DNA from: Gemmatimonadota bacterium
GTDB taxonomy: Bacteria; Gemmatimonadota; Gemmatimonadetes; Gemmatimonadales; GWC2-71-9
Direction of reading: 5' to 3'
NCBI GenBank assembly: GCA_003222035.1
Contig: QHUS01000052.1
Coordinates: forward strand, 6,003 to 70,002
Length of the DNA: 64,000 nucleotides
Below the pieces are notes generated by a model that saw only the letters and a program-made list of their open reading frames with translations, was not told the origin of the DNA and did not search any database. This document shows positions 31,255 to 49,631 of this stretch, piece after piece; the first letter of the stretch is position 1, and each line of letters starts with the position of its first letter. A program made the position numbers and the translations under genes.

Positions 31255-32118
31255 TCAAGCAGTTGGATCATCCTCACTTGGCACGGTCCACCCCTCGTCG
31301 AGCAGCGCCCGCCGGGCCCGGTCGCGCCGTCGCCGCAGCCGCACGAGCCAGATCATGGTCAGCCCGAGGATCGCCCACACGAGCCCGACCGCGCCGGCCC
31401 AACCGAGCCAGCCGTACCGCGTCGCGACGTCCTGCTGCCACCGAATCTCGAAATCGTCTTCCGTGATGTGATACGTGTCGCGCAGCGCCGCATCGAACGT
31501 CGGATCCCGCGCGAGGTGCTCGATGAACGGCGCGAGACCGCGATCACCCCCGGCTACGACATTGCCGCCCCCGCCGCCCGCAGCGCTCCACCGTGCGAGC
31601 AACAGCACCGCTGTCGTCGCGAGTGCGTACGCCGTCGTGGCGTCGGGCCGATCTCCGCGCAGCGCCCGATCGAGTTCGTCCAGATCGAACCGCGCGCCTC
31701 GCGCCACCTGCCAGTTCAGCTGCAGGGCATCGAGGCGGTCCCACTCGCCCGCCGCCAGGCTGGCGTAGCCCTCCTCGAACCACAGCGGCAGCGAATGACG
31801 CACGCGTGCCCGCAACGCCAAATGCGCGAGCTCGTGGCGCAGTGCCCCGGCCAGTCGGAGCGTCGGACGGTCGGACAGCAACACCACGACGCCGCGCTCG
31901 GGGAACGCGGCCCCTTCGCTCCACCCGGGCAGCCGTCGGCGTGTCAGCGAATCGAACACGGCGCGGCTCGGGGCGAGGATCAATCGGATCGGGCGATCGG
32001 GCAACGGGCCGACGCCGGGGAACGGCTCAGCCGCGTCGGCCGCCCGGGCGAGCTCGACGGCAAGCGCCTGCTGCGGCGGCCACGCAACCGCAGTCACCCG
32101 GCCCACGGTGACGCTCAT
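31255..32118 (-). CDS. peptidase-MA-like zinc metalloprotease with C-terminal TM anchor
   Basis: HELAHL, with WFEEGYA about 20 residues downstream (gluzincin HExxH..E), and a C-terminal TM (WAGAVGLVWAILGLTMIWLV). The start is ATG 32116-32118. Confidence 0.6.
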   Translation of the reverse strand: MSVTVGRVTAVAWPPQQALAVELARAADAAEPFPGVGPLPDRPIRLILAPSRAVFDSLTRRRLPGWSEGAAFPERGVVVLLSDRPTLRLAGALRHELAHLALRARVRHSLPLWFEEGYASLAAGEWDRLDALQLNWQVARGARFDLDELDRALRGDRPDATTAYALATTAVLLLARWSAAGGGGGNVVAGGDRGLAPFIEHLARDPTFDAALRDTYHITEDDFEIRWQQDVATRYGWLGWAGAVGLVWAILGLTMIWLVRLRRRRDRARRALLDEGWTVPSEDDPTA

Positions 32119-32153
32119 GGGCGCCGCGCCCTGCAGGACCAGCCAGATCAGAC

Positions 32154-33017
32154 TCAGTTGCGCGGCGGCTCCTGTCCCTGGAGAGCCAGCGTGAGCGTGT
32201 CCTGACACTTCTTGCCCCAGGGGTTGAACTTGTTCGCCTTGAATCCCTCTTCCCACGATTGCTTCGCCCGATCCTGATCGCCCGCAAACCAGTAGGCGCG
32301 TCCCAGCTCGTAGTAGGCCTCGATCAGGTTCGGGCCGAGCTTGAGGGTCTTCTGGAAAAACGTCTGCGCGTCCTCGAACATCTCGCGCTGCAGGTAGACG
32401 AGCCCAAGGTAGAAGTGGGCGTACAGCGTCGCCTTCTTGTCGTTGTCGAGGCGGATCGCCTTCGAAAGGTGCTCGATGGCTTCGCCGAAGATGCGCTTCT
32501 TGAGGCAGATGTACCCGACGTTGATGCGGGCGAGGGAGTTGGCGGGCTCCTTCATGAGGACCTTCTGAAACGTGCCGAGCGCGTCGTCGTAGTCCTCATG
32601 CAGCATCTGGCCCCAACCGAGCAGCGACTCGGCCTGCGTCGCGCCGGGGGACAGCTGCAGCGCCTTCTGCAGCGCCTGGATCGCGCCGGCGTAGTCGCCG
32701 AGGGAGATGAGGCTCCATCCCTTTTCGATGAACGTGGACGCACCGATGTGGTCGGCGTGCACAGCGGGTCGCGTGCCGGTGAATTCGGGGGCCGACGCCT
32801 CGGCCGTGGAGGACGCGACCTGCTTGAAGCGCTCGACGAGCTTGCGGACGTCTTCCTTCAGCGCCGACAGCTCGGCAATCAACGCATCCACCCGCTTGAA
32901 GTACGCAATGATCTCGCGCTTCACCGCCTCGCGCTCCGCACCGCCGGTCACCGTGTCGAGGCGCCGCGCGATCTGCTCGTACTCGGCCCGGAGGGCCGGG
33001 AGCGGAGTCTCCGCCAT
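32154..33017 (-). CDS. coiled-coil plus TPR-repeat protein (last gene of the Che/Mgl string)
   Basis: MAETPLPALRAEYEQIARRL.., then TPR repeats (GDYAGAIQALQKALQLSP, YDDALGTFQKVLMKEP, FGEAIEHLSKAIRLD, FEDAQTFFQKTLKLGP). The start ATG overlaps the cheW stop by 1 nt. Confidence 0.8.
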   Translation of the reverse strand: MAETPLPALRAEYEQIARRLDTVTGGAEREAVKREIIAYFKRVDALIAELSALKEDVRKLVERFKQVASSTAEASAPEFTGTRPAVHADHIGASTFIEKGWSLISLGDYAGAIQALQKALQLSPGATQAESLLGWGQMLHEDYDDALGTFQKVLMKEPANSLARINVGYICLKKRIFGEAIEHLSKAIRLDNDKKATLYAHFYLGLVYLQREMFEDAQTFFQKTLKLGPNLIEAYYELGRAYWFAGDQDRAKQSWEEGFKANKFNPWGKKCQDTLTLALQGQEPPRN

Positions 33018-33493
33018 CACGCCTGTGCCGGTTCCCGAACCGCCGTCTCGAGCGCGAGCTTCTCCTTGGACGAGAGGAGACGCGCGGTGTTGAGCACGAT
33101 GATCGTTCGCCCGTCCTTCACGACCAGTCCCGTGATGTACTCCGCCGCGAGACCTTTCACGATGGTCGGCGGCGCCGAGATTTCGGGCGCCGCCACTTGC
33201 AGGACTTCGGTGACCGCGTCGACCACCACGCCCAGCCGTCCCCCCTCCCACTCCAGGATCGCGATCCGCGTCTCCTCACGCAGCGGCGCCGCGACGCCGA
33301 GACGCTTCCGCAGATCCACCAGCGGCACGGGGGCATTCTGATACCGCAGCACGCCTTCGAGAAAGTCCGGCGCCTTGGGGAGCGGCGCGGGCGCCTCATA
33401 GCGGAGAATCCGCTCGACCTGGAAGATGTTGAACGCCAGATCCTGACCGGCCACCTTGAAGGTGACGAGCTGGACGTCGTCGCCTGTCGTCAT
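33017..33493 (-). CDS. cheW: chemotaxis coupling protein CheW
   Basis: LVTFKVAGQDLAFNIFQVERIL..FLEGVLRYQNAPVPLVDLRKRLG..GVVVDAVTEVL. Confidence 0.9.
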   Translation of the reverse strand: MTTGDDVQLVTFKVAGQDLAFNIFQVERILRYEAPAPLPKAPDFLEGVLRYQNAPVPLVDLRKRLGVAAPLREETRIAILEWEGGRLGVVVDAVTEVLQVAAPEISAPPTIVKGLAAEYITGLVVKDGRTIIVLNTARLLSSKEKLALETAVREPAQA

Positions 33494-33918
33494 CCGATCT
33501 TATCTCCCAAGGCATCCAGGTCCAGGATCGGCACCAGGGTGCCGCGACGTCGGGCCACGCCGGAGGCCCAGGGCAGCGACTCGCCGTGCGGTACGGGCAG
33601 GGCACGCTCGCGTACCACGTCGTCGGCGTCGTCCACCTCGAACGCCACCTGGCGCGTGCCCCCGCCCTTTCCGCCGGGCCCCAGCTCCACGAGCACTGCC
33701 GCCCGTCCGCGCTCGGGTGGCGGCGTCCGCTCCCCCAGCAGCGCGCCGAGGTGCACGACGGGAACCAGGCGTCCCCGTAGCGGCGTGAGTCCGCGCATCG
33801 CGGGCAGGGCGCGGGGCACGGAGAGCACTTCGGCCAGGTCTCCGACCTCGAGCACGCGCGCAAGCGGGAGGCCATACTCCTTGCCGTCGACGCGGACCAG
33901 CAGGTAACCGCGGCTCAT
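33490..33918 (-). CDS. CheW-like protein (divergent)
   Basis: LLVRVDGKEYGLPLARVLEV..MRGLTPLRGRLVPVVHLGALLG..AFEVDDADDV; it overlaps the next cheW by 4 nt. Confidence 0.8.
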   Translation of the reverse strand: MSRGYLLVRVDGKEYGLPLARVLEVGDLAEVLSVPRALPAMRGLTPLRGRLVPVVHLGALLGERTPPPERGRAAVLVELGPGGKGGGTRQVAFEVDDADDVVRERALPVPHGESLPWASGVARRRGTLVPILDLDALGDKIG

Positions 33919-33964
33919 GGCTCGCGGCTGAAGCCGCGGCTCGGCCCTGCCGCTAAGGTGGCGC

Positions 33965-35077
33965 TCATTCTGCGCCCCGCACGTTCAATTTGGCTCCCCG
34001 TGCCGTCAGTTGGTCGACCACGCGCTCCGCGATCTCCCCCAAGGGGAAGACCGCGTCTACCCCGCCGATCTGCACGGCGGCCGTCGGCATGCCGGCGATC
34101 ACGGCGGAGGCGCGGTCCTGCGCGATGCCGCCGCCGCCCGCCGCGCGGATCGCGCGTACGCCGTCCGCGCCGTCGCGGCCCATGCCGGTGAGGACGACGC
34201 CGACCGCATGCGGGCCGAACACAAGGGCCACGGAGCGGAACAGTGGATCGGCCGCCGGGCGGACGCCCCAGATAGGCGGCTCCTGGTCGAGCGCGATCGC
34301 GGGGCCATCGGGCGCGCGGACCACCCGCATATGATAATCGCCCGGCGCGACGTACGCCGTGTCGGCGACCACGGGCGTGCCGTCGTCGGCCTCCACCACG
34401 TGGAGCTCGGACAGCGAGTCGAGGCGCTCCGCGAGGGACCGCGTGAAATTCGGCGGCATGTGTTGCACCACGAGCACGGCGGCGCCCCGCCCCGTCGGAA
34501 GCCGCGGGATCAACTCGGCGAGCGCGCGGGGGCCGCCGGTCGACGCGGCCACGGCCACGGCGAACTGGGCCCGCGGGCGGAGCCCCGCTTCGGGCACGCG
34601 GCGGGCGGGCACCGGTGGCCGGGCCATCACGGCGACGCGGGACACGTCGGCCGCGAGGGCGCGGCGCACCGCGGCGCGCAACTCGGGACCCATGCGCAGC
34701 AGCGCCGAGCGGTTCCCTTCGTCGGGCTTGGCGACGATCTCGACTGCGCCCAGCTCCAGCGCGCGGATCGCGGCACCGGTCCCGGGCCCCGCGTGCGCGC
34801 TGACCACCACGATCGGGCGCGGCGTCTCCGACATGATGTAGCCGATCGCGCCCAGGCCGTCGAGCTCGGGCATCTCGAGGTCCATGGTCACGACATCGGG
34901 ATCGAACTGATGCACCTTGCGGACCGCGTCGAATCCGTCGCGGGCGGTCCCCACGACGCGGAACTCGCCGTCCCCCGCGGTATTCGCGCCGCTCAGCACG
35001 TCGCTCAGCACGCGTCGCAGCAACGCGCTGTCATCCACGACGAGAACGCTCGGCCGCCGATCAGAGGACGGTGACAT
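33965..35077 (-). CDS. cheB: protein-glutamate methylesterase CheB (REC plus esterase)
   Basis: [27 protein letters not shown] (REC domain) and [26 protein letters not shown] (esterase domain). The start ATG 35075-35077 overlaps the cheD 3' end by 17 nt. Confidence 0.93.
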
Positions 35078-35582
35078 CGGCCCCCACCGAGCGAACCTCG
35101 ACCCGGCCGTCCCCCACATAGAACCGCACGGAGCGGCCGGACCCACCCCCCACCGCCTCCCGCATCACGGGGATTCCGATGCGACGCAGGACGTCGCGCG
35201 CGGCGACGATGTTCCGTTCGCCCATCTGCATGGAGCCCGGGGTCATGAGCTGGGCGAACATGCTCGCTCCGCCCGCGAGCTTGGCGATCAGGCGCCGCGG
35301 TTCGGCGCCGAGCCGCGTGAGCTCGTGCACCAGCAGCGGGACGGCCGTCTCGGGAAACTTCGCGGGGTTGGTCGCATCGCGTGCGAGGCTGCGCGACGGG
35401 AGCAGGACATGCGCCATCGCCCCGGCCCCCGCCTGCGGATCGTGCAGCATGATCGCGACGCAGGACCCGAGCCCCAGCGTCACGAGCACCGCGCTCCCGC
35501 GTTCGGCGGCCCACTCGGCCACCTTGACGATCCGCTCGGCGGGGGGGAGCGGGGAGGGGGCCGCCCCGTCGCCCGCCCTCAC
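35061..35582 (-). CDS. cheD: chemoreceptor glutamine deamidase CheD
   Basis: [60 protein letters not shown]. The start GTG 35580-35582 overlaps the cheR stop (GTGA). Confidence 0.88.
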
Positions 35583-36403
35583 GCGGGCGTCGCCTTCTGG
35601 TAGATCCGCTCGCGCGGCTCCTCCAGCCGGAACCGGTCCCGCGCGGGGCCGAACAACGTCTCCACCTTGCCGAGGAGCAGCAACCCTCCGGGCGCGAGGG
35701 TATCGGCGAACAGCGTGAACAGCCGTTCCTGCATCGGCCGGTCGAAGTAGATCACGACGTTGCGACACACGATCAGGTCGTAGGGCGCCGCGGGCGCCGG
35801 CTCGCTGGTGAGGTCGTGCTTGAGGACGCGCACGATCCGCTGCAGCTCCGGCACGGGGCGGCGCGGCGGCTCCGGGGTGAAGTAGCGGTGGACCAGCTCG
35901 GCCGGCATCTCGGTGAACGCCGCCTCGGGATACGCGGGTGCCCGGGTGCGCTCGAGACTCGCGCGGTCGATGTCGGTGGCATCGACCCGAGCCCGTCCCA
36001 GCAGCGCGGGCTGGCCCAGCCGGCGCGCCGTCTCGGCGAGCGCCACCGCCATCGTGTATGGCTCCTCCCCCGAGGCGCAGCCGGCGGACCAGGCGCGAAC
36101 CTCCCCGCGGCGCGCTTTCCAGAGTCCCTCGATCCACGGCGCCAGCGCGCGCCACGTTTCCACGTTGCGGAAGAACTTGGTGACGTTGATGGTGAGCGCG
36201 TCGAGCAGCAAATCGTACTCGAGCGCGTCCTCCTCCAGCAGCCGGCCGTAGTCGGCGAACGTGTGAACGCCGCGGGCCCGCATCCGCACCGAGATGCGAC
36301 GCCGCAGGCAGCGGTCCTTGTAGGAGTCGCAGGCGAGGCCCCGCGCCTGCGTGATCTTGCGCGTGAGCGCCCGGAACGCCAGTTCGTCCTGCTCCGACTT
36401 CAC
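35579..36403 (-). CDS. cheR: chemotaxis protein methyltransferase CheR
   Basis: LTINVTKFFRNVETW..VRAWSAGCASGEEPYTMA..IVCRNVVIYFD. The start GTG 36401-36403 overlaps the upstream stop (GTGA). Confidence 0.9.
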   Translation of the reverse strand: MKSEQDELAFRALTRKITQARGLACDSYKDRCLRRRISVRMRARGVHTFADYGRLLEEDALEYDLLLDALTINVTKFFRNVETWRALAPWIEGLWKARRGEVRAWSAGCASGEEPYTMAVALAETARRLGQPALLGRARVDATDIDRASLERTRAPAYPEAAFTEMPAELVHRYFTPEPPRRPVPELQRIVRVLKHDLTSEPAPAAPYDLIVCRNVVIYFDRPMQERLFTLFADTLAPGGLLLLGKVETLFGPARDRFRLEEPRERIYQKATPA

Positions 36404-38016
36404 GACAGCGCGCTCAGGGTGTCCAGATTGGCCTTGACGAGCTCGTGCTTCGGATTGATCTCGAGCGCCTTGCGCCACAGCTGCGCCGCGAGCTCACGGT
36501 TGTTCCGCTTGTACGCAATGTTCCCGAGCTTGAAGTAGACGTCGTCGCCCAGCTCGGGCGCCAGCTCGACCGCCCGACTGTACGCGTCCCAGGCCTCGTC
36601 GTAGCGCGACCCGCGATAGGCCAGGTCGCCGAGATTCTTGGACAGCTGGGGGAGCGACGGCTCGTTCTTGCGCGCCGCCCGCACCAGGTCCTCCGCGCCT
36701 GTCAGATCGCCGGACAGCTCCTTCAGCACGGCGAAGTTGTTCTGCAGCGCGGCGTGCGAGGGATAGGCCTCCACTCCGTCCTCGGCCAGCTCCTCGGCCT
36801 GCTCGAATTCGCCGGCGCCCGCCGCCGCGAGGGAGCGCGCCCAGAACCAGGCGGGCGGGGGCGCTTGTCCGAACAGCTCGCGTGCCCGGTCGAGCCGCCC
36901 GGCGGCGCCGCCGTAGTCACCGCGCTTGAGCGCGACCACGCCCCAGCCGAGATACACTTTGGCATCGGTCCGCGCCCGGGCAGCGGCTTCGGCGTAGGCG
37001 GCCTCCGCCTCGTCCAGCCGCCCCAGCTGCTCGTATGCGAACCCCAGGTTGTGGAACACCGCGGGCCGCCCGCCGCCCTTCTCCGCGGCGAGGCGTAGCG
37101 CCTCCATGGCCTCGCGCCACCGGGCCTGCTTCAACGCCACCAACCCGATGTAGAAGTGGGCACTCGCGTCGCTGCCGCGCAGCTCCGCCACGCGCCGGAA
37201 CTCCCGCGTGGCTTCGTCGAGCATGCCCGTCTTGTAAAACGCCACGCCCAGGTTACGGTGCTCTTCGACGCGCGCGTCGGTAATCTCCGCATCCGCCCCC
37301 GTGGTCGTGCGCCCGGCGCGGTGCACGAACCCCGCCGTGATCAAGCCGTACAGCGCCTTCCCGATCTCGAACTCGCCCAACCCCGAGTCTTCGATCACCT
37401 GGTTCACGTCGCGCGACGCGTCGAGCAGCGGCAGGAGGCGTTGTTGCGCATCCGTGAGTTGGCTTTCGCTGATCGCGATCCGGTCCTTGTCTACGACGAA
37501 GATCAGGTCGAATGACGGGATCTTTTTTTCGATCAGGCTCCATTCGTCCACCCGGCGGGCGCCCTCGAGCAGCAGCGATTCCGGGTTGATCGAGACGAGG
37601 AAATCCTGTGGCCCCGGGCGGACGTCGGCCTCGAAGTTGAAGGTCCCCTGCGTCCACGTGAACAGGTAATAAACCGACTCCTCGATCTGCACGCGCATGT
37701 AGCGCTCGAGATCTCCCTGCGTGATCACCCCCATCGCGACCAGGACCTCGCCCAGCCTCTTGCCGTGCTCCTTGGTCTGCCGGTGCACGGCCACGTCGAG
37801 CTGCTCCTGGGTGATCTTGCTGTGCTTCACGAGGATGTCGCCCAAGCGGTCGCGTCGGTTCACGATCGACGCGTAGCAGATGCGCCCCTTCTCGAAGTAG
37901 ATGTAGCCGAAGTTCGAGCGGTCGGCGATGGACAGGCATCCCGTCTTCTGCCCGAGCGCCAGGAGCTGGAGCACGTCGGGGAGGGACGCTTCCTTGAGCG
38001 AGCCCTTGATGGCCAT
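36400..38016 (-). CDS. PATAN(DUF4388)-like domain protein with MshEN-like helical insert and C-terminal TPR repeats (paralog 1)
   Basis: [49 protein letters not shown] (DUF4388/PATAN signature), tandem RLGxxLV..G.I....L......Q motifs, and at least 6 TPR-like repeats. The start ATG 38014-38016 overlaps the upstream stop by 1 nt. Confidence 0.8.
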   Translation of the reverse strand: MAIKGSLKEASLPDVLQLLALGQKTGCLSIADRSNFGYIYFEKGRICYASIVNRRDRLGDILVKHSKITQEQLDVAVHRQTKEHGKRLGEVLVAMGVITQGDLERYMRVQIEESVYYLFTWTQGTFNFEADVRPGPQDFLVSINPESLLLEGARRVDEWSLIEKKIPSFDLIFVVDKDRIAISESQLTDAQQRLLPLLDASRDVNQVIEDSGLGEFEIGKALYGLITAGFVHRAGRTTTGADAEITDARVEEHRNLGVAFYKTGMLDEATREFRRVAELRGSDASAHFYIGLVALKQARWREAMEALRLAAEKGGGRPAVFHNLGFAYEQLGRLDEAEAAYAEAAARARTDAKVYLGWGVVALKRGDYGGAAGRLDRARELFGQAPPPAWFWARSLAAAGAGEFEQAEELAEDGVEAYPSHAALQNNFAVLKELSGDLTGAEDLVRAARKNEPSLPQLSKNLGDLAYRGSRYDEAWDAYSRAVELAPELGDDVYFKLGNIAYKRNNRELAAQLWRKALEINPKHELVKANLDTLSALS

Positions 38017-39980
38017 CAGCGAAACTCCTCGATCATGCGGTCCGCCACGTCGATCCAGTCCCAGACCATCTTCTCGCGACTCTTGACGCCTCCGAGGCTC
38101 GAGACCACGAGACCGCTGGTGCGAAACCCGCTGGAGCGTCGGCTGTCGCGCGGCGCCTGGCCTTCGAGCACTTCGCGCGCGAGGCCCGCCGAGACAGGCC
38201 GCCCATCCTGGGCGGCCCCCGCCTCGATCACGCGCTGGATCAGGCCCACGAGGCCGCGCACCGAGTCGGCGGGCCGGTCGGCGAGGTAGTCGATCAGCGC
38301 CGGTTCCGGGGTCACGCCCTGCTGCGCCAGCAAACGCTCGAGCACGGCGCGCCTCACGTCGCGGTCGGGCTCCTTGATCTCCGCCACCAGTCCGCCCTCG
38401 AGGCGCGACACGATGCGCTCCTCGATCCCGACCAGCGTATTGGGATGCGCCGGCGCCGTGAACACGAGCTGGCGATCCTTGTCCTGGAGCAGGTTGAACA
38501 GGTTGAACAGCTCTTCCTGTGTCCGTTCCTTGCCGGTCAGCAGATGGATGTCGTCGAGCAACAACGCCGTGGCTCGGCGGTAGCGGGCGCGCCACCAGTC
38601 CACGCGGTTGCCGTCGATCGCGCCGATCAGCTCGTCGATGAACGCCTGGGTGGAGAGGCACGCCACGACGGCGCGGCGGCCGCGCGCCAACTCGAGCCCG
38701 ACCGCGTTGAGCAGGTGCGTCTTGCCGAGCCCGCTCTTCCCGACGAGGACGAGCGGGTTGTACTTCTTCCCCGGCCGCTCGAGCACGGCCCGGGCCGCGC
38801 TGACCGCGACCTGGTTCGACGGGCCCACGGCGTACGCGGCGAGCGGAAACGCCGCTGACGGCCCGGGGGGCGGCGCGGCCCCATCCCGGACCTTCGTAGC
38901 GGCCTGCTCCGCCTCCTGCAGCCGCTCGGGGTCTCGGAACACGCTGTCGCCGGCGGCCTGGGGGTCGAGCTCCCCCACCTCCGCCTCGAGCGCTTTGAGG
39001 CGCTCGACGTCCTCCGCGAACCCCGCGATGGCCTCGTCCACCGCAGTTGGCGCGTCCTGCTGCAGGAGCGCCTCGAGCCGATGCGTGCGGTATCCCTCGC
39101 CTTCCCACCGCAGCACGGCTTCGCCCACCCGAGCGCGCCACGCTTCGACGGCTTTTCCGACGGTGACGGTCACGTCGGCGAGGAATTGTCCGAACTCGTC
39201 CCCGCCGGCCGCGGCGGCCGGGACGGGCCCGGCCTTCTCCGCCGCCCCCTTTGCCCGCTGCGCGTCGAGCCCCAGGATCCGTTTGACCGTCTCCGCGTTG
39301 ATCGAGGTATCGTGGACGGCCTGGAACGCCACGAGCCGGTTCAACGCGCCCATCAACTCGCGCACGTTGCCGAGCTCGGCTTGCGCCACGGTCTCGAGTA
39401 CGCCGGGGTCGAACCGCGCGCCCCGCTCTTCGGCCTTCCGCCGCAGAATCGCCACGCGGGTTTCGTACTCGGGCGTCGCGATGTCCACCACCAGCCCGCC
39501 CGACAGCCGGGAGATCAGCCGCTCGTCGAGATCGGCGATCTCGGCGGGCGGGCGATCGCTCGTCAGGACGATCTGGCGCCCCGCGGCCTGTAACGCCTCG
39601 GTGAGCCGCAGCAGCTCCGACTGCATCTCCTTGCGGTTCGTCAGGAATTGCACGTCGTCCACGAGGAGCACGTCCACGTTCTGGAAGCGGCGACGGAACG
39701 CGTCACCCTGTCCCGCCGCCACGCTCGCGTGGAACGCTTCGACGTACTCGTCGAGCGTCAGGTACTCGATGTTCAGCGCGGGTGCCGCCTTCTTGGCGGC
39801 GTGGCCGATCGCCATGAGGAGATGCGTCTTGCCCAGACCCGGGCCGCTATAGACGAACAGCGGGTTGTATGCCGCGCCCGGGCTCTCGGCCACGGTGCGG
39901 CCCGCCGTGACGGCCAGCCGGTTCGCGGCGCCCACGACGAACGTGTCGAAGGAGTACTTCGGGTTGAGCGCGCTCGTCAT
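38016..39980 (-). CDS. tandem DnaA-type AAA+ ATPase (two DnaA domain-III-like modules; no DnaA domain I/II or DNA-binding domain IV)
   Basis: Module 1: [78 protein letters not shown]. Module 2: [66 protein letters not shown]. The start ATG overlaps the mglA stop (ATGA). Confidence 0.8.
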
Positions 39981-40576
39981 GCCGTGGTCCCGGCGGCGAG
40001 CCTTTTGAGCACCAGCTCGGAGATGCCCTTGAGTGTCTCGAACACGCCCTTCCCGTGCAGCGCGTCAGCGCTGAAGCTCGGGACTCCCCGGAAATTGAGC
40101 GCGTCGTCCAGATCGGACGCCGAGAGGATCAGCTCGCGCGGCAGGTCCTGCTTGTTGTACTGCAGGACCAGCGGAACGGTGCGGATGTCCACGCCGTGCT
40201 CCAGCAAATTGCTCTGCAGGTTCTGCAGGCTCTCGAGGTTCTCATCGAGCTGGCGCGCCTGACTGTCGGCGACGAACACGACGCCGTCGGCCCCCTGGAG
40301 CACCAGCCGGCGCGTGGCGTTGTAGTAGACCTGGCCGGGGACCGTGTAGAGCTGAAACCGCGTCGCGAATCCCGAGATCTGCCCCAGGTCGATCGGCAGA
40401 AAGTCGAAGAACAGGGTGCGGTCGGTCTGCGTGGCCAGGGAGACCATGCGTCCCCGACGCGAGTCCGGGACGCGGCCATAGATGTAGTGCAGGTTCGTCG
40501 TCTTGCCAGACCGCCCCGGCCCGTAGTAGACGATTTTGCACGTGATCTCGCGCGTCGTGAAGTTGACCAGAGACAC
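39977..40576 (-). CDS. mglA: Ras-like small GTPase MglA
   Basis: [77 protein letters not shown] is collinear with, and highly similar to, Myxococcus MglA as I recall it. Confidence 0.92.
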
Positions 40577-40580
40577 GGGG

Positions 40581-41051
40581 CTATCTCCCGAAGAGCGTGT
40601 TGAGACTGGCGCTCAGCTCGCGCTCGAAGTCGGCCGCGAGCACCTGCTTCGGCACGCTGTCTTTGGGGCTCGCCGCCTGCAGATCGGCGGCGAGCTGCTC
40701 AAAGAATAATTGCACCAGGCCGAGCGACGAAACCTCGAGATCGTACACGACCAGCGCCACCAACCGGCCGCGGCCCGTCGCGACTGCCGCCAGGAAGATC
40801 CCGTGCCGCTCACCCTGATGGTTCAACGCGGCGAACGGCGGTTGACCCATCTGCCGCGCGATCTCGTCGGTGGATGCGACGATCGCCGCCCCGAGCGCCG
40901 CCGCTGACATCACGTCCACGGCGCGCGAGAATCCGTGCTGCGCCAGCACCTGGCCCGCCGACGTCATGACCAGCACGAGCCGCGCGCTCGCTTCCTTCAC
41001 GAACTTGACCAGCGGCTCGAGGGTCCAGTTTTCGACGGCGCGCGTCGTCAT
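40581..41051 (-). CDS. mglB: Roadblock/LC7 protein, MglB-like (putative MglA GAP)
   Basis: 156 aa, immediately upstream of mglA (4-nt gap). [52 protein letters not shown] parallels the MglB roadblock fold. Confidence 0.8.
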
Positions 41052-41407
41052 CCGACCACCTCCCCCGCCCGCAGCAGCTCCAGCCGCACGAGGCCGACGT
41101 TCACGTCCGGCTCCGCGACCGCCACGACGAGGGTCCCGCCGGCGGTCGGAACCACCAGCAACGCGCCCTGCTCGGCCTGCAGGTGCCAGAACAGGCTCGC
41201 GCCGACGCCCGCGGCTTCCATCGCGCGGCGCAACCGCGTGGCGAGGCTCGCCGCGAGCGCCGCGACCGCGGGTCCCTTGATCCCCTCCATGAGCTGCTCC
41301 GCCACGATGATCCCGTCGTCGGCGGAGACGAGCATCGCTCCCCGCACGCCGCGCACGCGCGTGACGAGGTCGAGCGCCCGCGTATAATTCGCCGGCGCGG
41401 TCGTCAT
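41048..41407 (-). CDS. Roadblock/LC7 domain protein (second)
   Basis: 119 aa. VRGVRGAMLVSADDGIIVAEQL..AVAALAASLATRL..ALLVVPTAGGTLVVAVAEPDVNVGLVRLELLR. It overlaps both neighbours with ATGA junctions. Confidence 0.75.
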   Translation of the reverse strand: MTTAPANYTRALDLVTRVRGVRGAMLVSADDGIIVAEQLMEGIKGPAVAALAASLATRLRRAMEAAGVGASLFWHLQAEQGALLVVPTAGGTLVVAVAEPDVNVGLVRLELLRAGEVVG

Positions 41408-42288
41408 GCGTGCTTCTCCAGCCAGCGGCGCGCCGCCACGGCCGCGCGCTGGGCGATGATCGCCAACCGTCCCATCGGGACGGCGCGGTCGCGCACGACG
41501 AGCAGCAGCGCGTCGCCCGTGGGCGCGGTCAGATGGACATGTCCGCCGTTGCCCTCCGCCGCAACACCGGTCCACCGTCCCAGAGCCAGCAGCTTGGCCG
41601 TCCGCGCCGCCTCCTGGGAGACGCCGGCGAGGTACGCGGCGACGGCGTCGGTCACGTCCTTGCCCCCGGGGTCCTTGAGCGCTCCGCCGAGCACCCGCCC
41701 CGCCGCGTCGAGCAACAGAAGCCCCTCCTGTGCTCCCTCGAGCCCGGCGAATACGCGGGCCTCCTCGAGAGGCTGGGCCGCCCCGGGGGGTCGGGGGGGG
41801 GGTGGAGGCGCGCGCTCGGTGGGAGCGTCGGAGGCCGGCAGCGCGACGGGCTCCCCCTCGCCCTCGGGGGCGGTGGGGCTAGGGGGGGATTCGCCGCCGC
41901 GCGCCATCGCGAGGGCTTGCGCGATACTCGCATCGGCCGGCGCCACGCGCTGCGCCGCCTCCAGGTGTGCGGCCGCCTGTGCCAGGTCGCCCACCTTGAA
42001 ATAGAGGAAGGCGAGCCCCTTGAGCGCGCCGACGTGGTCAGGAGCGATGCGCAGCGCCATGTCCCACTCGTCGAAGGCGCGCTCGTAGTCGTGCTTGTCT
42101 GCGAGGATGCGCGCGAACAGGTCGTGCGCGTCGGGGAGGTGGGGGTGACGGTCCAGGCCCGTCACGGCCACCCGCTGCGCGGCGTCGAGCTGGCCCTTCA
42201 TGCGCAGCAGCTCCCCCAGGCGCAGGAACACGAGGCTGTCCGGATCCTGCGCCAACTGCGAGGAGAGGGTCTTGATCTCTTCAGCCAT
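41404..42288 (-). CDS. TPR - Pro-rich linker - Roadblock/LC7 fusion protein
   Basis: N-terminal TPRs (SLVFLRLGELLRMKGQLDAA.., DAHDLFARILADKHDYERA.., ALKGLAFLYFKVGDLAQA), a PPPPPRPPG linker, and a C-terminal roadblock-like GLLLLDAAGRVLGGAL..DAVAAYLAGVSQEAART..ALLLVVRDRAVPMGRLAI. Confidence 0.7.
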   Translation of the reverse strand: MAEEIKTLSSQLAQDPDSLVFLRLGELLRMKGQLDAAQRVAVTGLDRHPHLPDAHDLFARILADKHDYERAFDEWDMALRIAPDHVGALKGLAFLYFKVGDLAQAAAHLEAAQRVAPADASIAQALAMARGGESPPSPTAPEGEGEPVALPASDAPTERAPPPPPRPPGAAQPLEEARVFAGLEGAQEGLLLLDAAGRVLGGALKDPGGKDVTDAVAAYLAGVSQEAARTAKLLALGRWTGVAAEGNGGHVHLTAPTGDALLLVVRDRAVPMGRLAIIAQRAAVAARRWLEKHA

Positions 42289-43438
42289 GCGTCGAGTTCC
42301 CCGTGCCCGCCAAGGTCTGGGCGGCGGCCTTGGCGCGGTGCACGGCGTCGCTCTGCGCCAGCTCCGCTTCCGAGTGCGCGGCCAGGCGCTCCCACTGGTC
42401 CCACTGCTCCACGGCCTCGCCGAACCGCCCGGTGGCGGCGAGGGCGTAACCGAGGATGCGGTGCGCGGCGACGCTCAAGGGGTCGAGCCGAAGCGCCCCG
42501 CGCAACTCTTCCACGGCGTCGGCAGCGCGTCCCCCGGCGAGCGCGATGCGGCCCAGCAGCAGGTGCACGTCGGGATCATGGGGATGCACGCCCGCCGCCT
42601 GCTCGGCCAGGCTACGCGCTTCCTCCAGGTCGCGCCGCCGCAGCGCGTCTTCCGCGCGCGCCACGAGCGCCGCCAGATCGGCGGCGAGCGTGGTGTGCTC
42701 GCGCTTGGTCGTACCGGGGTCGGAGAGCACGATCACCCCGGCGCTCTCGAGCCCGAACAGGGTCTTGGCGACGTCGAACTCCGAGCGTCCCAGGTCGGAG
42801 GCGATGGCCCGCACGTCCCGCGCGCCGTTGATCATCGCGAGCATCTCCCACTCGGGCGGTAGCAGGTCGAGCCCGCCCTCGACGCCTCCCTGGGGCGGGG
42901 CGAGCGTGGGCACGACGCCCAGGTGGGGAATGCGGCCCTCGATACGGGACCACTCGTCGATGCGCCGCGCGCCTTCCATCAGCAGCGCCTCCGTGGGAAT
43001 GCGCACGGTGGCGTCCGCCGGCACCTCGTCGGGCAGGCCCTCGGTGAACGAGAAGTAGCCTTCGCGCCAGCTCATGACCTCGAAGACGACCTCTTCGATC
43101 TGGAATCGCACCTGGCGCTCGAGCTCGCGGCGCGTGAGGGCGCCGATCGCGACGAGGATCTCGCCCAGGCGGCGTTTGTCGCCCTGGCGCAGCTGCATGT
43201 CGCGCGCGCGGTGGATGTCGGCCTCGCCGATCTTGCCGGTCCGCAGCAGCAGCGCGCCGATCGGATGGGGGTTCGAGCGAATCTCCGCGGCAATGATGGC
43301 GCCGCCCTCGAACGAGATCATGCCCGCGTTGTTGCGGAGCTCGGAGGTGACACGCAGCGCCCCGGTCTTCCGGCTCAGGTCGAGCAGCTGGAAGACATCG
43401 TGGATACCGAGCTCGCGGAGCGGGCCTTCGATCGGCAT
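42281..43438 (-). CDS. PATAN(DUF4388)-like domain protein with MshEN-like insert and TPR repeats (paralog 2)
   Basis: MPIEGPLRELGIHDVFQLLDLSRKTGALRVTSELRNNAGMISFEGGAIIAA, then RLGEILVAIGALTRRELERQVRFQ, and C-terminal TPRs. The architecture matches 36400..38016. Confidence 0.8.
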   Translation of the reverse strand: MPIEGPLRELGIHDVFQLLDLSRKTGALRVTSELRNNAGMISFEGGAIIAAEIRSNPHPIGALLLRTGKIGEADIHRARDMQLRQGDKRRLGEILVAIGALTRRELERQVRFQIEEVVFEVMSWREGYFSFTEGLPDEVPADATVRIPTEALLMEGARRIDEWSRIEGRIPHLGVVPTLAPPQGGVEGGLDLLPPEWEMLAMINGARDVRAIASDLGRSEFDVAKTLFGLESAGVIVLSDPGTTKREHTTLAADLAALVARAEDALRRRDLEEARSLAEQAAGVHPHDPDVHLLLGRIALAGGRAADAVEELRGALRLDPLSVAAHRILGYALAATGRFGEAVEQWDQWERLAAHSEAELAQSDAVHRAKAAAQTLAGTGNSTHG

Positions 43439-43452
43439 GGGGGGGGGCTGGC

Positions 43453-46149
43453 CTAATCCGAGGCGAAGATGTGTTGCAGGTCGACGGCGGTGCGCGCGTG
43501 CGCGCGCGCCGCCTGTGCGAACGCGCCAGCGGGGTCGATGCGCGTCACTTTCCCCCACGCCTGCACCGCCTCGTCGTAGCGGTGCAGGCGCGCGAGCGCC
43601 ACGCCGAGCTGAAACAGCGCTTCCACCTGGTCGGGGTCGAACTTGAGCGCGCGCTGGAACGCCTCGAGCGCCTGGGCATCGCGCTTGTCGTCCAGCAGGG
43701 TACGCCCGAGCAGCAGCAGCGCCAGCAGATCGTACGGGTCCTGCTCGAGCATCTCTGCGAGTCGCACGACGGCCTGGCGGTGGCGCCCGGAGCGCCGCAG
43801 CAGGTCGGCCAGCGCCAGCCCGGCCTCGTGAAAGGTCGGCAACGCATCGAGGGCGCGCTCGTAGGCGTCCTGGGCGTCGCGCCACGCTTCCTTGTCCTCG
43901 TGCAGCCGGCCCAGGTCGAGCCAGACCTGGATATAGCCGCGGTCGAGCTCGAGCGCGGACCGGTACGCGGCGAGCGCCCCCGCCTTATCGCCGACCTTGA
44001 GGGCGACGTCGCCCTGCAACTTGTGGAGGTCGGCGCGCCCAGGCGCGCGGGTCTGCGCCCGCTGCAGCGCGACGAGAGCTCCGGCGGCATCGCCTGCCGC
44101 CGCCCGCCCTTTGGCCGCGGCGACGAGGGCATCCACGTTCTCCGGTGCGAGCGCCAGCAGTTCCTCCGCCAGCCCGCGCGCCTCGTCGCCACGCGGGCCG
44201 CCCAGGGCGAACAACGCCTTGACCTCCCCGAGGCGCGCGTCGGCGCGGTCGGGTTCGAGCCCCCGGACCTCGCGGTAGCGCTCGAGCGCCTCGCCGTGCA
44301 GGCCCCGCTTCGCGAAGATGTCGCCCAGCAGCACGCCGGCGTGGGCGCGGCTGGCACCCCGCTGCACGGCGCGCACCGTCTCGGCCGCGGCGACATCCAG
44401 CAGGCCCTTGCTCACGTAATCGCGCGCCAGCGCGAGGGGATCGTCGGCGGACTTGGCGGTTGGCGACTCCGCGGCGGCAACCGCCGGCGCCAGGTCCTGA
44501 AAGATGTTGTCGAGCAGCCGCTCGTCGAAGGTGAAGTCCTCGCCGATCGTCTCGGCCGTCACGTCCGCCGAAATCTCGGGCGCGATGCCGATCGTGCCCT
44601 TCTCGTACTGCAGGTCGATGGTGAGGGCGAACTTCTGTGAGACGTAATAGGGATCGAGCTCGAGCGCCCGTTTTGTGGCGCGCAACGCGCCGTCGAAGTC
44701 GCCCAGGTTGGACAGGGTGAAGCTCAGGTTGTAGTGCGCGCCCGCGTGGTGCGGGTCCACCTCGACGGCGCGCACGAAGGCGTTGCGCGCGTCCTGAAAG
44801 CGCTTCAGCTCCACGAGCACCAGCCCCACGCCGTTCCACGCCGGCGCGGAGCTGGCGTCGCTCGACAGGACCTGGCGGTACGCTTCCAGCGACAGTTGGA
44901 AGCGGCGCAGTTGAAACAGCAGCAGGGCCAGGTTGAGGCGCGCGGCGGTGAACGTCCCCTGGAGCCGCAGCGCGGTCCGGAACGACTCGATCGCGGTGTC
45001 GGCGTCTTTGCCCGAGGCCTGGACCACGCCGAGGTTGTTCCACGCCAGCGCGTACTTCAGGTCCACCTCGACCGCCTGGCGGTACGAGGCGACCGCCTGC
45101 GTCGTGCGGCCCGCCTGGTGCAGAACGACGCCGTGCTCGTTCCAGAGCTTGGGCGAGTCGGGGACTTCGCGGAGCAGCGTTTCGTACAGCTCCAGGGCGG
45201 CCGGGAAGTCGCGCTTCAGGAGGTGAACCTCGGCCGTCGCCTGCAGCGCGAGGCGCCGATCCTCGCCGCGCTCGAGCCCGAGCCGGTATTCGCGCAGTGC
45301 CTCGTTATAGTAGCCCTTCTGCCGGAACGCGAGCCCGAGATTGTAGTGGGCCAGCGCGTTGCCCTCCACCACCTGCGGCTCGGGCGCCAGGCGCTGGCGC
45401 CGCTCCTGCATCTTGCGCTCGGCGTTGTAGCGCTCGAGCGAGAGGTTGGTCTGTGCCCGGGCGAGCGGCGGGTTGAGCTCGATGGCGCGCTTGGAGGACG
45501 CACGCGCCTCCTGATGCCGGCCCATGTCGCCCAGCACGAACGCCATCAGGTAGTGGGCGTTGGCGTTGTCGGGGTTCAGCTCCACGGCGCGCTCCAGGGC
45601 GGCGAGCGCCTCCGTGTTCAACCCGCGATTGTAGTAGATCTCGCCGAGGTAGAAGTGCACGACCGTGGACTCGGGCTCGAGTTCGACGGCGCGCGCGAAC
45701 CAGTCGGTCGCCGCCTCGGGACGGCCCCGGTTCTTTTCCGCGAGCCCGAGCTGGATGATCGCGGCCACATCCTTGGAGCGGTGGGCCAGCAGCTGCTCGA
45801 ACTCTTTGACCGCGTCATCGTGCGCGCCGAGGATCGCGTAGGCGCGTCCCAGCTCCCAGCGGGCGTCGCGGTCGTCGGGCGCCTGGCGGAGGCGCTCGCG
45901 CAACTGCGCGACCCGACGGTCGTAATAACCCGTGTCGTGATAGGCGATCTCGAGGTTGCGCTGCGCGACCTGCATCTTCGGATCGAGCTCGAGCGCGCGC
46001 GTGAACGCCCCGATTGCCTCTTCGACGAGGCCCTTCTGGTAGTAGAGAACGCCGAGATTGTTGTGCGCCCCGGCGTCCGACGGATCGATCCGGCGCGCGA
46101 AGGATCGGAGGACGGCGAGGTCGCGTTCCGAGAGCGCCGGCGCCGTCAC
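43453..46149 (-). CDS. large TPR-repeat protein (898 aa)
   Basis: About 20 consecutive TPR units (e.g. AHNNLGVLYYQKGLVEEAIGAFTRALELDP, VHFYLGEIYYNRGLNTEALAALERAVELNP, AWNNLGVVQASGKDADTAIESFRTALRLQ). Confidence 0.85.
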   Translation of the reverse strand: MTAPALSERDLAVLRSFARRIDPSDAGAHNNLGVLYYQKGLVEEAIGAFTRALELDPKMQVAQRNLEIAYHDTGYYDRRVAQLRERLRQAPDDRDARWELGRAYAILGAHDDAVKEFEQLLAHRSKDVAAIIQLGLAEKNRGRPEAATDWFARAVELEPESTVVHFYLGEIYYNRGLNTEALAALERAVELNPDNANAHYLMAFVLGDMGRHQEARASSKRAIELNPPLARAQTNLSLERYNAERKMQERRQRLAPEPQVVEGNALAHYNLGLAFRQKGYYNEALREYRLGLERGEDRRLALQATAEVHLLKRDFPAALELYETLLREVPDSPKLWNEHGVVLHQAGRTTQAVASYRQAVEVDLKYALAWNNLGVVQASGKDADTAIESFRTALRLQGTFTAARLNLALLLFQLRRFQLSLEAYRQVLSSDASSAPAWNGVGLVLVELKRFQDARNAFVRAVEVDPHHAGAHYNLSFTLSNLGDFDGALRATKRALELDPYYVSQKFALTIDLQYEKGTIGIAPEISADVTAETIGEDFTFDERLLDNIFQDLAPAVAAAESPTAKSADDPLALARDYVSKGLLDVAAAETVRAVQRGASRAHAGVLLGDIFAKRGLHGEALERYREVRGLEPDRADARLGEVKALFALGGPRGDEARGLAEELLALAPENVDALVAAAKGRAAAGDAAGALVALQRAQTRAPGRADLHKLQGDVALKVGDKAGALAAYRSALELDRGYIQVWLDLGRLHEDKEAWRDAQDAYERALDALPTFHEAGLALADLLRRSGRHRQAVVRLAEMLEQDPYDLLALLLLGRTLLDDKRDAQALEAFQRALKFDPDQVEALFQLGVALARLHRYDEAVQAWGKVTRIDPAGAFAQAARAHARTAVDLQHIFASD

Positions 46150-46152
46150 GGG

Positions 46153-46770
46153 TCAGCTCAGGCGGATGGCGTCAAAGATGGCCTTGAGCGACGCCAGATC
46201 GGGGAGCAGCAGGAAGTCGCCCCGCAGCCCGTCCCCCGCGTCGATCTGCAACTCGGTCTCGACGCAGAACACGAAGTCGCGCTCGTGCCCGAAATTCAGA
46301 TAGGTGGTCGTGAGCACCGCCGCCGCCAGGTCCACCACGAGGCTCGGGACGGAGGGCAGCAGCAACATCCCCATGAAGTCCGAGAGCGCATTCAGGTACG
46401 CACCCGCCAGGATGTTGCCCGCCTCCTTGAGACAGGACTGCTCCAGCGCGTCGTACACGGCGGTCGTGCCGATGGGCCGGCGCAGCAGCATGTCGCACAG
46501 CCGGCGGCCCGCCGACTCGGGGAACAAGAGCAGCGTGCGCCCCGTCAGATCCCCCAGCATGTGCATCAGGACCGCCGCCACCACGTCCTGCGGATTGCCC
46601 AGCAGGTCGGGGACCTCTTCGAGGCGCGCGATGTTGATCTGCGGCACGCTGATCATGATCCGGCAGTTCGTGAGCTGCGACAGGGCGGTGGCGGCGTGAC
46701 CGGCGCCGATGTTCGCCACCTCGCGCAACGCGTCGATCTGCCGCTCCTTGAGATCCCGCACGTCCTCCAT
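46153..46770 (-). CDS. cheC: CheY-P phosphatase CheC
   Basis: IDALREVANIGAGHAATALSQL and a second EAGNILAGAYLNALS half-site (the CheC/FliY duplicated motif). Confidence 0.88.
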   Translation of the reverse strand: MEDVRDLKERQIDALREVANIGAGHAATALSQLTNCRIMISVPQINIARLEEVPDLLGNPQDVVAAVLMHMLGDLTGRTLLLFPESAGRRLCDMLLRRPIGTTAVYDALEQSCLKEAGNILAGAYLNALSDFMGMLLLPSVPSLVVDLAAAVLTTTYLNFGHERDFVFCVETELQIDAGDGLRGDFLLLPDLASLKAIFDAIRLS

Positions 46771-49058: not shown

Positions 49059-49631
49059 CTAGGAAGACAGAATGGGGGTTAGCAGCGCGTCGGTATCGAG
49101 AACCACGAAGAGTTGACCGGCGCGGCGCCCGACGGCCCGCACTAGCGTCGGATCGATGCCGGGCAGTGCCTGCCGGCGTTCCAGCGCCTCTCCACCCACC
49201 GAGAGGAGGTCCACGACCTCATCGACCGTGAAACCGAGGACCTTTTTGCCCCCGTCCAGCTCGAGCAACACCGTCGTCCCCGCCACGTCTCCCCCTTCTC
49301 CTCCCACCCTCTCTCCCCCTCCACCCGCCCCGCCACCGGTCATGGGGTCTGAGGCGGGGGCAGGAGCAGGGGCAGGGCTTGGGGCGGACCCGGAAGCGGG
49401 GGCGGGGGGGAGGGGGGGGGCGGGGGCGGCCTGACGCAACGCCCGCCATCCCTCCACCACCGTCACGAGGGTGCCCCGCACGTTCACAATTCCTGCCACG
49501 ACTGGGGGCGCCCCGGGGATCCGGGTCGGCTCCAGCCGCGGCAGGATTTCACGGACCCGCTCTGCCTCGGTGGCGCAGAGGAGGTTGCCCACCCGAAACA
49601 GCAGCAGTCGGACGACCCCCGCGTCACTCAT
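49059..49631 (-). CDS. CheW-like protein with a ~50-aa Pro/Ala/Gly low-complexity insert
   Basis: LLLFRVGNLLCATEAERVREIL..VAGIVNVRGTLVTVV..LGFTVDEVVDLL, with the insert APAPPLPPAPASGSAPSPAPAPAPAS..GGGAGGGGERVGGEGGD. The start ATG 49629-49631 overlaps the rluD end. Confidence 0.8.
   Translation of the reverse strand: MSDAGVVRLLLFRVGNLLCATEAERVREILPRLEPTRIPGAPPVVAGIVNVRGTLVTVVEGWRALRQAAPAPPLPPAPASGSAPSPAPAPAPASDPMTGGGAGGGGERVGGEGGDVAGTTVLLELDGGKKVLGFTVDEVVDLLSVGGEALERRQALPGIDPTLVRAVGRRAGQLFVVLDTDALLTPILSS

Follow-up and report, generated by a model that had tools for sequence, protein, structure and literature searches.

A tandem DnaA-like ATPase encoded among MglA, PATAN and TPR genes in Gemmatimonadota: a putative non-replicative switch or scaffold

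What might a protein made of two replication-initiator ATPase modules do in an operon of MglA, PATAN and Che genes? The standard example of a replication-initiator ATPase is DnaA domain III, and its offshoots known to us (Hda, DnaC/DnaI, IstB and Orc/Cdc6) all act on DNA transactions. The gene in question encodes a 654-amino-acid (aa) tandem DnaA-like ATPase, here given the working name DD. It lies in a 64,000-nt stretch of DNA from a Gemmatimonadota bacterium (assembly GCA_003222035.1, contig QHUS01000052.1, positions 6,003-70,002 of the forward strand), which we refer to as the window. DD lacks a DNA-binding domain and has genes for PATAN, tetratricopeptide repeat (TPR) and MglA proteins as neighbours, which suggests that the ATPase fold of an initiator has found a use other than replication. 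Gene context and gene fusions lead us to infer that DD was co-opted for signalling or scaffolding. Comparative sequence analysis suggests, with a probability of roughly 0.55, that DD is derived from DnaA, has a non-replicative role and serves a PATAN/TPR(/MglA) module for polarity and motility as an ATP-gated switch or scaffold.

DD contains two DnaA-type AAA+ modules

DD combines a pair of DnaA domain-III modules with a helical middle domain and a C-terminal tail motif, located in the window as follows.

38016..39980 (including stop), minus strand: DD, tandem DnaA-like ATPase, 654 aa, ATG start (open reading frame list and translation)
39276..39968, minus strand: AAA+ module 1 (aa 5-235), with Walker B LLVDD, sensor I TSDRPP, box VII ERLISRL and sensor II NVRE (Pfam, PDB sequence match, Foldseek)
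38880..39197, minus strand: helical middle domain (aa 262-367), with the motif DEFGxFL...W...EGYRTxRLExLL...FRDPD (family alignments, AlphaFold2)
38163..38834, minus strand: AAA+ module 2 (aa 383-606), with Walker B LLLDD, box VII ERIVSRL and sensor II SVRG (Pfam, PDB sequence match, family alignment)
38019..38081, minus strand: C-terminal motif (aa 634-654), [ST]xEKxVWxWPxxxxRhIEExx-COOH (alignment of 68 members)

An earlier note on this DNA had placed a 654-aa open reading frame with an ATG start at 38016-39980, overlapping mglA at its start and a PATAN-TPR gene at its stop. The open reading frame list and the translation agree with this, all motif strings that the note quoted are found in the translation, and the strand, which the note did not give, is minus. 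Both overlaps can be read in the sequence: ATGA is common to the mglA stop (TGA) and the DD start (ATG), and TGATG is common to the DD stop (TGA) and the PATAN-TPR start (ATG), which puts the latter at 38016.

Bac_DnaA (Pfam accession PF00308) matches DD in two stretches, from residue 5 (E 2.4e-99). Compared with solved structures, each half alone finds Bacillus subtilis DnaA domain III (PDB 8bv3), with E-values of 1.9e-61 for half 1 and 6.6e-42 for half 2. Module 1 is 46.5% and module 2 37.2% identical to the B. subtilis domain; between the two modules, identity is 33%. We modelled DD with AlphaFold2 from an alignment of 30 diverse relatives (mean predicted local distance difference test score (pLDDT) 86.9, predicted template modelling score (pTM) 0.50). 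The top Foldseek match of this model is again DnaA domain III (8bv3, template modelling score (TM) 0.95, root-mean-square deviation 1.4 Å). The Pfam, structure-database and Foldseek matches together bear out the two tandem DnaA domain-III modules that the earlier note had described. In a neighbour-joining tree, which is rough and was used only for DnaA derivation and module grouping, the modules derive from DnaA; within the main clade, modules 1 cluster together and modules 2 likewise.

Both modules of the window DD carry the Walker A Lys, the Walker B acidic pair and the sensor II Arg, and both have box VII arginines. Module 2 has a degenerate sensor I (TAPAHP) and keeps a GKERTQ motif.

The label 'Hda-like', which the earlier note had attached to DD, is inexact: Hda structures 3bos and 3sc3 match the DD halves at E ~1e-6 only, as against 1e-42 to 1e-61 for DnaA. 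The Hda/HdaA models also stay under their cutoffs (TIGR03420, 186.2 versus 194.8; NF006571, 68 versus 297; NF051883, 67 versus 300). We rejected an IstB/DnaC-type mobile-element ATPase because the corresponding models score below cutoff (NF038214, 91 versus 200 bits; NF005931, 27.6 versus 357), the best matches are to DnaA, the window has no transposase near DD and synteny is kept phylum-wide. The assignment to the DnaA clade rather than to another AAA+ clade therefore stands. Two other candidates were also discarded: p97-type tandem ATPases as homologues, because the whole-model Foldseek TM is only ~0.27, and a defence system, because the PADLOC matches were no more than marginal, generic ones (AAA and TPR).

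DD lacks the domains and the genomic context of a replication initiator

Searching by tblastn with three canonical DnaAs, we detected only two domain-III copies in the window, and neither DnaA domain I nor domain IV in any frame of the window and 80 related loci. Pfam likewise finds no domain IV helix-turn-helix (Bac_DnaA_C) in DD. The earlier note's statement that domains I and IV are missing is thus confirmed, and no domain IV comes to light in other frames. The note had also seen no origin context. Consistent with this, the window contains 0 DnaA boxes at up to 1 mismatch and neither a GC-skew switch nor an AT-rich stretch (GC is uniform at 65-74%, and the cumulative skew has no turn). No dnaA, dnaN or oriC lies near DD, whose immediate neighbours are mglA and PATAN-TPR. 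The lack of domains I and IV and of an oriC context supports the view that DD is not a replication initiator.

DD lies in an MglA, PATAN and Che operon

The genes around DD are all on the minus strand. In order, they are ileS, lspA, rluD, cheW, cheY, cheA, cheC, a TPR gene (898 aa), PATAN-TPR, TPR-Roadblock, Roadblock, mglB, mglA and DD. After DD come PATAN-TPR, cheR, cheD, cheB, cheW, TPR, a hypothetical gene and TPR, and then the division and cell wall (dcw) cluster. The cheA, cheC, cheR, cheD, cheB and downstream cheW rows below rest on tblastn synteny, with Pfam labels taken from the related locus L086.

46787-48682, minus strand: cheA
46153-46770, minus strand: cheC
43453..46149, minus strand: large TPR protein, 898 aa (synteny; homologue in L085, 30% over 766 aa)
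42281..43441, minus strand: PATAN (DUF4388)-TPR protein 2 (Pfam DUF4388, E ~1e-30)
41404-42288, minus strand: TPR+Roadblock fusion (Pfam)
41048-41575, minus strand: second Roadblock/LC7 gene (Pfam; a long open reading frame whose true start is probably further in)
40581..41051, minus strand: mglB, Roadblock/LC7 (Pfam Robl_LC7; PDB MglB, E 2e-9)
39977..40576, minus strand: mglA (E 1.6e-73 to Myxococcus xanthus MglA, PDB 5ymx; stop overlaps the DD start)
36400..38016, minus strand: PATAN (DUF4388)-TPR protein 1 (Pfam DUF4388, E 1.4e-39; ATG overlaps the DD stop)
35579-36478, minus strand: cheR
within 33017..36478, minus strand: cheD
33965-35146, minus strand: cheB
33017-33493, minus strand: cheW (downstream)

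An MglA-type GTPase thus adjoins a Roadblock/LC7 MglB in the window (PDB matches of 1.6e-73 and 2e-9). Three consecutive Roadblock/LC7 genes precede mglA (40581-42288, minus strand), namely mglB, the second Roadblock gene and TPR-Roadblock. The latter two are both kept in related loci. This set points to a more elaborate complement of GTPase-activating proteins and guanine nucleotide exchange factors than the single MglB of model organisms.

PATAN and/or TPR genes are the invariant neighbours of DD

The DD family is abundant in metagenomes. A search of 1.84 billion cluster representatives returned many full-length tandem relatives of ~650 aa, down to ~34% identity. All DD members that carry an organism name are Gemmatimonadota (Gemmatimonadales, Gemmatimonadaceae or 'Gemmatimonadetes bacterium'); for the more distant ones, we inferred taxonomy from source names. 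We also scanned one genome per GTDB species with a profile of the middle domain and matched 310 genomes. The closest 80 of these 310 (L001-L080) are all Gemmatimonadales except for two probably mis-binned contigs, L020 ('Myxococcales') and L021 ('Thermoleophilaceae'). These two are 88-90% identical to Gemmatimonadales loci and share the same synteny, so they are most likely binning errors in public metagenome-assembled genomes; we treated them as such and rejected a wider distribution on their account.

The arrangement CheA-CheC-TPR-PATAN-Robl-Robl-MglB-MglA-DD-PATAN/TPR-CheR-D-B-W is identical in those of the 80 loci that are long enough (tblastn). The cheA-to-cheW order of this main clade is also found in a Gemmatimonadaceae metagenome-assembled genome (L086). 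Members at 35-39% identity (L081-L084) keep cheC, TPR, PATAN, TPR, Robl, mglB, mglA, DD, PATAN-TPR and TPR and are without cheA, cheR, cheD and cheB. Linkage to mglA is seen in all loci among L001-L080 that reach far enough upstream, in L081-L084 and in L086, and is not seen in L085, L087, L088, L090 and L092. The conserved mglA linkage proposed by the earlier note thus holds in all main-clade loci examined, to 35% identity, and breaks down in the divergent lineages. These lineages have the following gene arrangements.

L085 (~50% GC lineage, two members named Gemmatimonadetes): homologue of the 898-aa TPR protein directly upstream of DD (30% over 766 aa, E 1e-93)
L088 (~50% GC lineage): same arrangement as L085, with an 817-aa protein at the TPR position, its likeness being by position alone
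L092 (~50% GC lineage): cheW, cheY, cheA ... cheC, TPR, PATAN, DD
L087 (dead module-2 P-loop): ileS, rluD, DD, PATAN-TPR
L090 (dead module-2 P-loop): rluD, Roadblock, DD, PATAN-TPR

A divIVA gene lies near DD in both L087 and L090. Every lineage examined has PATAN and/or a large TPR gene beside DD, often with Che genes. That PATAN and/or TPR remain where MglA is missing suggests that the invariant partners of DD are PATAN/TPR and that its core partnership is not with the GTPase. On this comparison, MglA/MglB appear to be an addition to, or a retention in, the main clade.

The Che/Mgl/DD cluster of the window is inserted between ileS-lspA-rluD and dcw, all on the same strand (window 12067-32256 and 49624-56777, both minus). 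The dcw genes are rsmH, ftsI, murE, murF ... ftsW ... murC ... ftsA and ftsZ, followed by an M23 peptidase gene, and yggS lies upstream of ileS. The ileS-lspA-rluD/dcw placement recurs in the distant members L081, L086, L087 and L090. Between two TPR genes of the window lies a 333-aa open reading frame (31255-32256, minus strand) that has no Pfam match at E 1e-5. Its positional counterpart in the same four distant loci is a Peptidase_MA_2 protein, and lineages that lack MglA also keep it downstream of PATAN-TPR.

DnaA-like modules also occur fused to TPR and MshEN domains

We identified an 876-aa protein (P0256) in which ~550 aa of TPR repeats are fused to a DnaA-like module. It is encoded on a JGI contig of only 3.4 kb, and the protein may be truncated or the product of a gene-calling merge. 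The fusion is a hint that TPR proteins and DnaA-like ATPases may work together.

Two much larger proteins, P0200 (1,990 aa) and P0209 (1,876 aa), begin with an MshEN domain, after which come two DnaA-like modules separated by a long helical region. Their loci are type IV pilus clusters with pilD, several MshEN/DnaA-like genes, pilB, pilT, pilC, pilS and pilR. Our literature search found no description of MshEN/DnaA-like genes in such clusters. In the same rough neighbour-joining tree, the N-terminal modules of the MshEN-DnaA fusions cluster with module 1 from the low-GC DD lineage. Loci L089 (4309-15923) and L091 (2681-13179) contain three or four consecutive genes with MshEN, DnaA-like AAA+ or both, none of which has a domain IV. 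These fusions tie DnaA-like modules to the domain types of the DD neighbours (TPR, MshEN/PATAN) and to pilus machinery.

A related motif occurs in the PATAN proteins of the window. Residues 57-110 of PATAN-TPR (37687-37848, minus strand) contain a tandem 24-residue motif, RLGDILVKHSKITQEQLDVAVHRQ and, after a 6-residue spacer, RLGEVLVAMGVITQGDLERYMRVQ; the second PATAN gene has an equivalent region. Both window PATAN proteins thus carry a tandem RLGxxhhxxGhhxxxxLxxxhxxQ motif inside the DUF4388 model, which is the cyclic di-GMP-binding motif defined for MshEN (Wang et al., 2016; PMC5013675). The MshEN-like reading draws on this published motif and on one BLAST alignment, in which the MshEN region of P0200 aligns to the motif-bearing part of PATAN-TPR. 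With E-values of up to 10 admitted, Pfam still gives no MshEN match in the PATAN proteins of the window. The fit to the MshEN motif suggests that the PATAN partners of DD may be cyclic di-GMP receptors.

DD has a conserved middle domain and a C-terminal motif

Between the two modules lie ~22 disordered residues (aa 240-263 in the model) followed by a conserved helical domain of ~105 aa. Modelled alone with AlphaFold2, this middle domain has a pLDDT of 93 and a pTM of 0.78, and its motif is kept across the DD family in two alignments. Family-wide conservation and a confident fold argue that the region is not a generic coiled-coil linker, and the earlier note's 'coiled-coil linker' of ~130 aa gives way to a helical domain that is conserved and confidently modelled. 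The domain has no significant PDB structure match (Foldseek, best E-value 2) and no Pfam match. By these predictions, the middle domain is new and specific to the DD family.

After a disordered stretch (aa 610-638, pLDDT below 50 in the AlphaFold2 model), DD ends in the C-terminal motif, which is among the best-conserved parts of the family. E636 is conserved in 61, K637 in 62, W642 in 65, E651 in 59 and E652 in 52 of the 68 members. The distance from the conserved Trp to the C-terminus is exactly 12 residues in 58/65 members. What the earlier note had seen as a short tail is indeed at the C-terminus, as a strongly conserved, C-terminus-anchored motif rather than a mere tail.

Module 1 is a predicted ATP site, and module 2 is less conserved

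Residue conservation was counted in 68 non-redundant DD members with pairwise identity <75%. The ATP site (Walker A Lys and Walker B Asp) is present in module 1 of 68/68 and in module 2 of 60/68. The sensor II Arg is kept in 63/68 (module 1) and 57/68 (module 2), and the DnaA-specific sensor-I Asp in 49/68 and 13/68, respectively. The box VII Arg finger is found in module 1 of 46 and in module 2 of 58 of the 68 members, and all eight members with a decayed module-2 P-loop (8/8) keep the module-2 finger. We infer that the family universally requires nucleotide binding by module 1. Module 2 resembles a site that is regulatory or in decay, and the conservation pattern makes its Arg a good candidate for completing the site in module 1.

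A sub-lineage in which the module-2 Walker A/B motifs are destroyed (e.g. SPDGVAARVL, LLVHG) keeps both box VII arginines and the C-terminal motif. The members with a dead module-2 P-loop are listed below.

L087: 6892-8838
L090: 10001-12190
Further members: P0173, P0177, P0183, P0191, P0197, P0202, P0224, P0234, P0241, P0254

From established knowledge and alignments to solved DnaA, we mapped onto DD the residues that we take to be the single-stranded DNA (ssDNA) contacts of DnaA (E. coli V211 and R245; Aquifex aeolicus V156, K188, R190 and T191). Module 1 has a polar residue at the V211 equivalent, and 54/68 members carry Glu or Asp at that of R245. Module 2 of the window DD has Ile at the A. 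aeolicus V156 equivalent and retains GKERTQ, a motif that decays among more distant DD members. The MshEN-DnaA fusions keep all ssDNA-contact residues.

DD may be an ATP-gated switch or scaffold

In the mechanism that we propose, module 1 would be the working nucleotide site and module 2 a regulatory or degenerate one. The module-2 box VII Arg would complete the module-1 site of the same chain or, as in DnaA filaments, of a neighbouring one. The C-terminal peptide, on its disordered tether, would dock onto the TPR domain of PATAN-TPR or of the large TPR protein. The ATP state of DD could then control assembly or localisation of a PATAN/TPR/MglA complex. Judging by the fusions and by MglA, PATAN and MshEN systems elsewhere, this complex probably controls the function of type IV pili or of the cell pole.

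Hsp70 and Hsp90 bind TPR co-chaperones through an IEEVD tail, and the proposed docking of the DD tail is modelled on this analogy, together with the TPR neighbours and the TPR fusion.

Several points weigh against an ATP-gated switch or scaffold. The tail-TPR docking is argued from analogy and co-occurrence only. Eight of the 68 members lack both Arg fingers with both P-loops intact, and finger-stimulated hydrolysis is therefore not universal in the DD family. The relative placement of the two modules in the AlphaFold2 model is uncertain (pTM 0.50), which bears directly on Arg-finger pairing. In module 2, the V211 equivalent is hydrophobic in 47/68 and the R245 equivalent is Arg in 48/68, so some nucleic-acid binding is possible. 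The window has no type IV pilus gene, and the link to pili is drawn from other lineages and from knowledge of MglA and PATAN in other bacteria. Finally, the window and the retrieved loci, which are the stretches covered here, contain no canonical dnaA.

A broader possibility, which we put forward tentatively and hold less firmly than the reading of DD itself, is that domain-IV-less DnaA-type AAA+ proteins form an unrecognised class of motility/polarity ATPases with at least two architectures, DD and the MshEN-fused giants of another lineage. ATP-dependent DnaA-like self-assembly would in this class gate the building or polar placement of pilus/polarity machinery. Cyclic di-GMP may feed into it through the MshEN-type motifs of the PATAN partners.

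Alternative explanations

The alternative that survives best, though we think it unlikely, is that DD regulates the genuine DnaA in the manner of Hda, its DnaA-like AAA+ faces assembling with DnaA-ATP so as to cap filaments or to stimulate hydrolysis through a box VII Arg, and so couples replication to polarity, chemosensory or division signals. Module 1, at 46.5% identity to B. subtilis DnaA domain III, is far closer to DnaA than Hda is, and DnaA-type oligomerisation surfaces may therefore be preserved. The box VII arginines of both window modules are consistent with such a role, as is the position of the cluster directly upstream of dcw (rsmH-ftsI-mur...ftsA-ftsZ), with divIVA adjoining in other lineages. 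However, the N-terminus of DD has no Hda-type clamp-binding motif, TIGR03420 stays under its cutoff and many members do without Arg fingers. The genes conserved nearby and the partners in fusions are moreover PATAN, TPR, MshEN, MglA, Che and pilus components rather than replication genes, and neither dnaA, dnaN nor oriC is nearby.

Less probable still is that DD binds ssDNA or another nucleic acid through module 2 and DnaA-like filaments, either DNA handled by a pilus (e.g. during uptake) or the chromosome in polar tethering. The Ile and GKERTQ of the window module 2, the family-wide retention at the V211 and R245 equivalents of that module and the full set of contact residues in the MshEN-DnaA fusions of pilus clusters would all fit. 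Module 1, however, has lost the contact residues, with a charge reversal at the R245 equivalent, and GKERTQ decays in distant members. The contexts examined contain no competence or DNA-processing genes, and domain IV is missing.

That DD is the chromosomal replication initiator DnaA itself, the name given by JGI and by TIGR00362 (495.6 bits versus a cutoff of 343.9), we regard as very nearly excluded, since the score passes only through two summed partial domain-III matches, domains I and IV are absent in all frames, the window has no DnaA box or skew switch and the gene lies inside an MglA/PATAN/Che operon. Each stretch matches only model positions ~101-336 of TIGR00362, and the cutoff is passed because the two domain-III copies add up, a duplication artefact. 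This summed score explains why JGI/IMG name many family members 'chromosomal replication initiator protein DnaA', the usual JGI name; NCBI uses 'DnaA/Hda family protein'. Thousands of database entries carry the DnaA annotation for this reason, and in Gemmatimonadota it can lead astray both the prediction of origins and surveys of gene content.

Comparison with known systems

The fold and clade of DD are known; its tandem architecture, extra domain, tail motif and gene context are new. The earlier note knew of no described precedent, and full-text literature searches agree: we found no DnaA-like ATPase described with MglA, PATAN/DUF4388, MshEN or type IV pili.

DnaA domain III (8bv3, 8btg; A. 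aeolicus 2hcb, 3r8f) shares its fold, Walker A/B, box VII and sensor II with both DD modules. The sensor-I Asp is kept in module 1, whereas it is degenerate in module 2. DD differs from DnaA in having two modules per chain, no domains I, II and IV, an added helical domain and C-terminal motif, and a module 1 without ssDNA-contact residues. The context of DnaA is oriC-dnaN, whereas that of DD is motility/polarity.

Hda, the RIDA regulator of DnaA, which stimulates hydrolysis of DnaA-ATP jointly with the loaded clamp, is a single AAA+ module of ~230 aa and carries a beta-clamp-binding motif (QL[SP]LPL-like) at its N-terminus. Hda/HdaA resemble DD as DnaA-derived AAA+ proteins without a DNA-binding domain that keep an Arg finger, and DD, too, would work through contacts between proteins and not through origin DNA. 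In contrast to Hda, DD is a tandem protein of 654 aa, and no clamp-binding motif can be read at its N-terminus.

The type II tandem AAA+ proteins (p97/Cdc48, NSF, ClpB) likewise have two unequally conserved modules, which suggests a working and a regulatory site. They belong to the classic clade, whereas DD belongs to the initiator clade (Foldseek TM ~0.27 to p97), and we found no evidence that DD forms a hexameric ring or threads substrates as p97/ClpB do.

The MshEN-DnaA fusions (P0200, P0209; L089, L091) are similar to DD in having two domain-IV-less DnaA-type modules and an association with MshEN/PATAN-type domains and motility. They differ from DD in size (1,876-1,990 aa), in their long helical spacer and in lacking the DD middle domain and C-terminal motif. 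If our reading is correct, DD and the MshEN fusions extend the initiator clade to the control of cell polarity or motility.

The MglA/MglB modules of M. xanthus and Thermus thermophilus are comparable to the DD operon, which likewise has MglA, MglB, PATAN, TPR and Che genes. An association of PATAN with MglA is said to have been noted by Makarova in 2006. Wuichet and Sogaard-Andersen (2015; PMC4316618) also noted it, and their supplementary table S2 gives Gemmatimonas aurantiaca GAU_1409 as 'PATAN>MglA>-PATAN>', with an unnamed gene in between; DnaA is not mentioned in that paper. The unnamed gene is probably a DD homologue. No MglA system has been described with a DnaA-like ATPase, whereas the DD operon has one, and DD would, if our reading is correct, be a candidate for the missing ATP-dependent part of MglA-type polarity systems.

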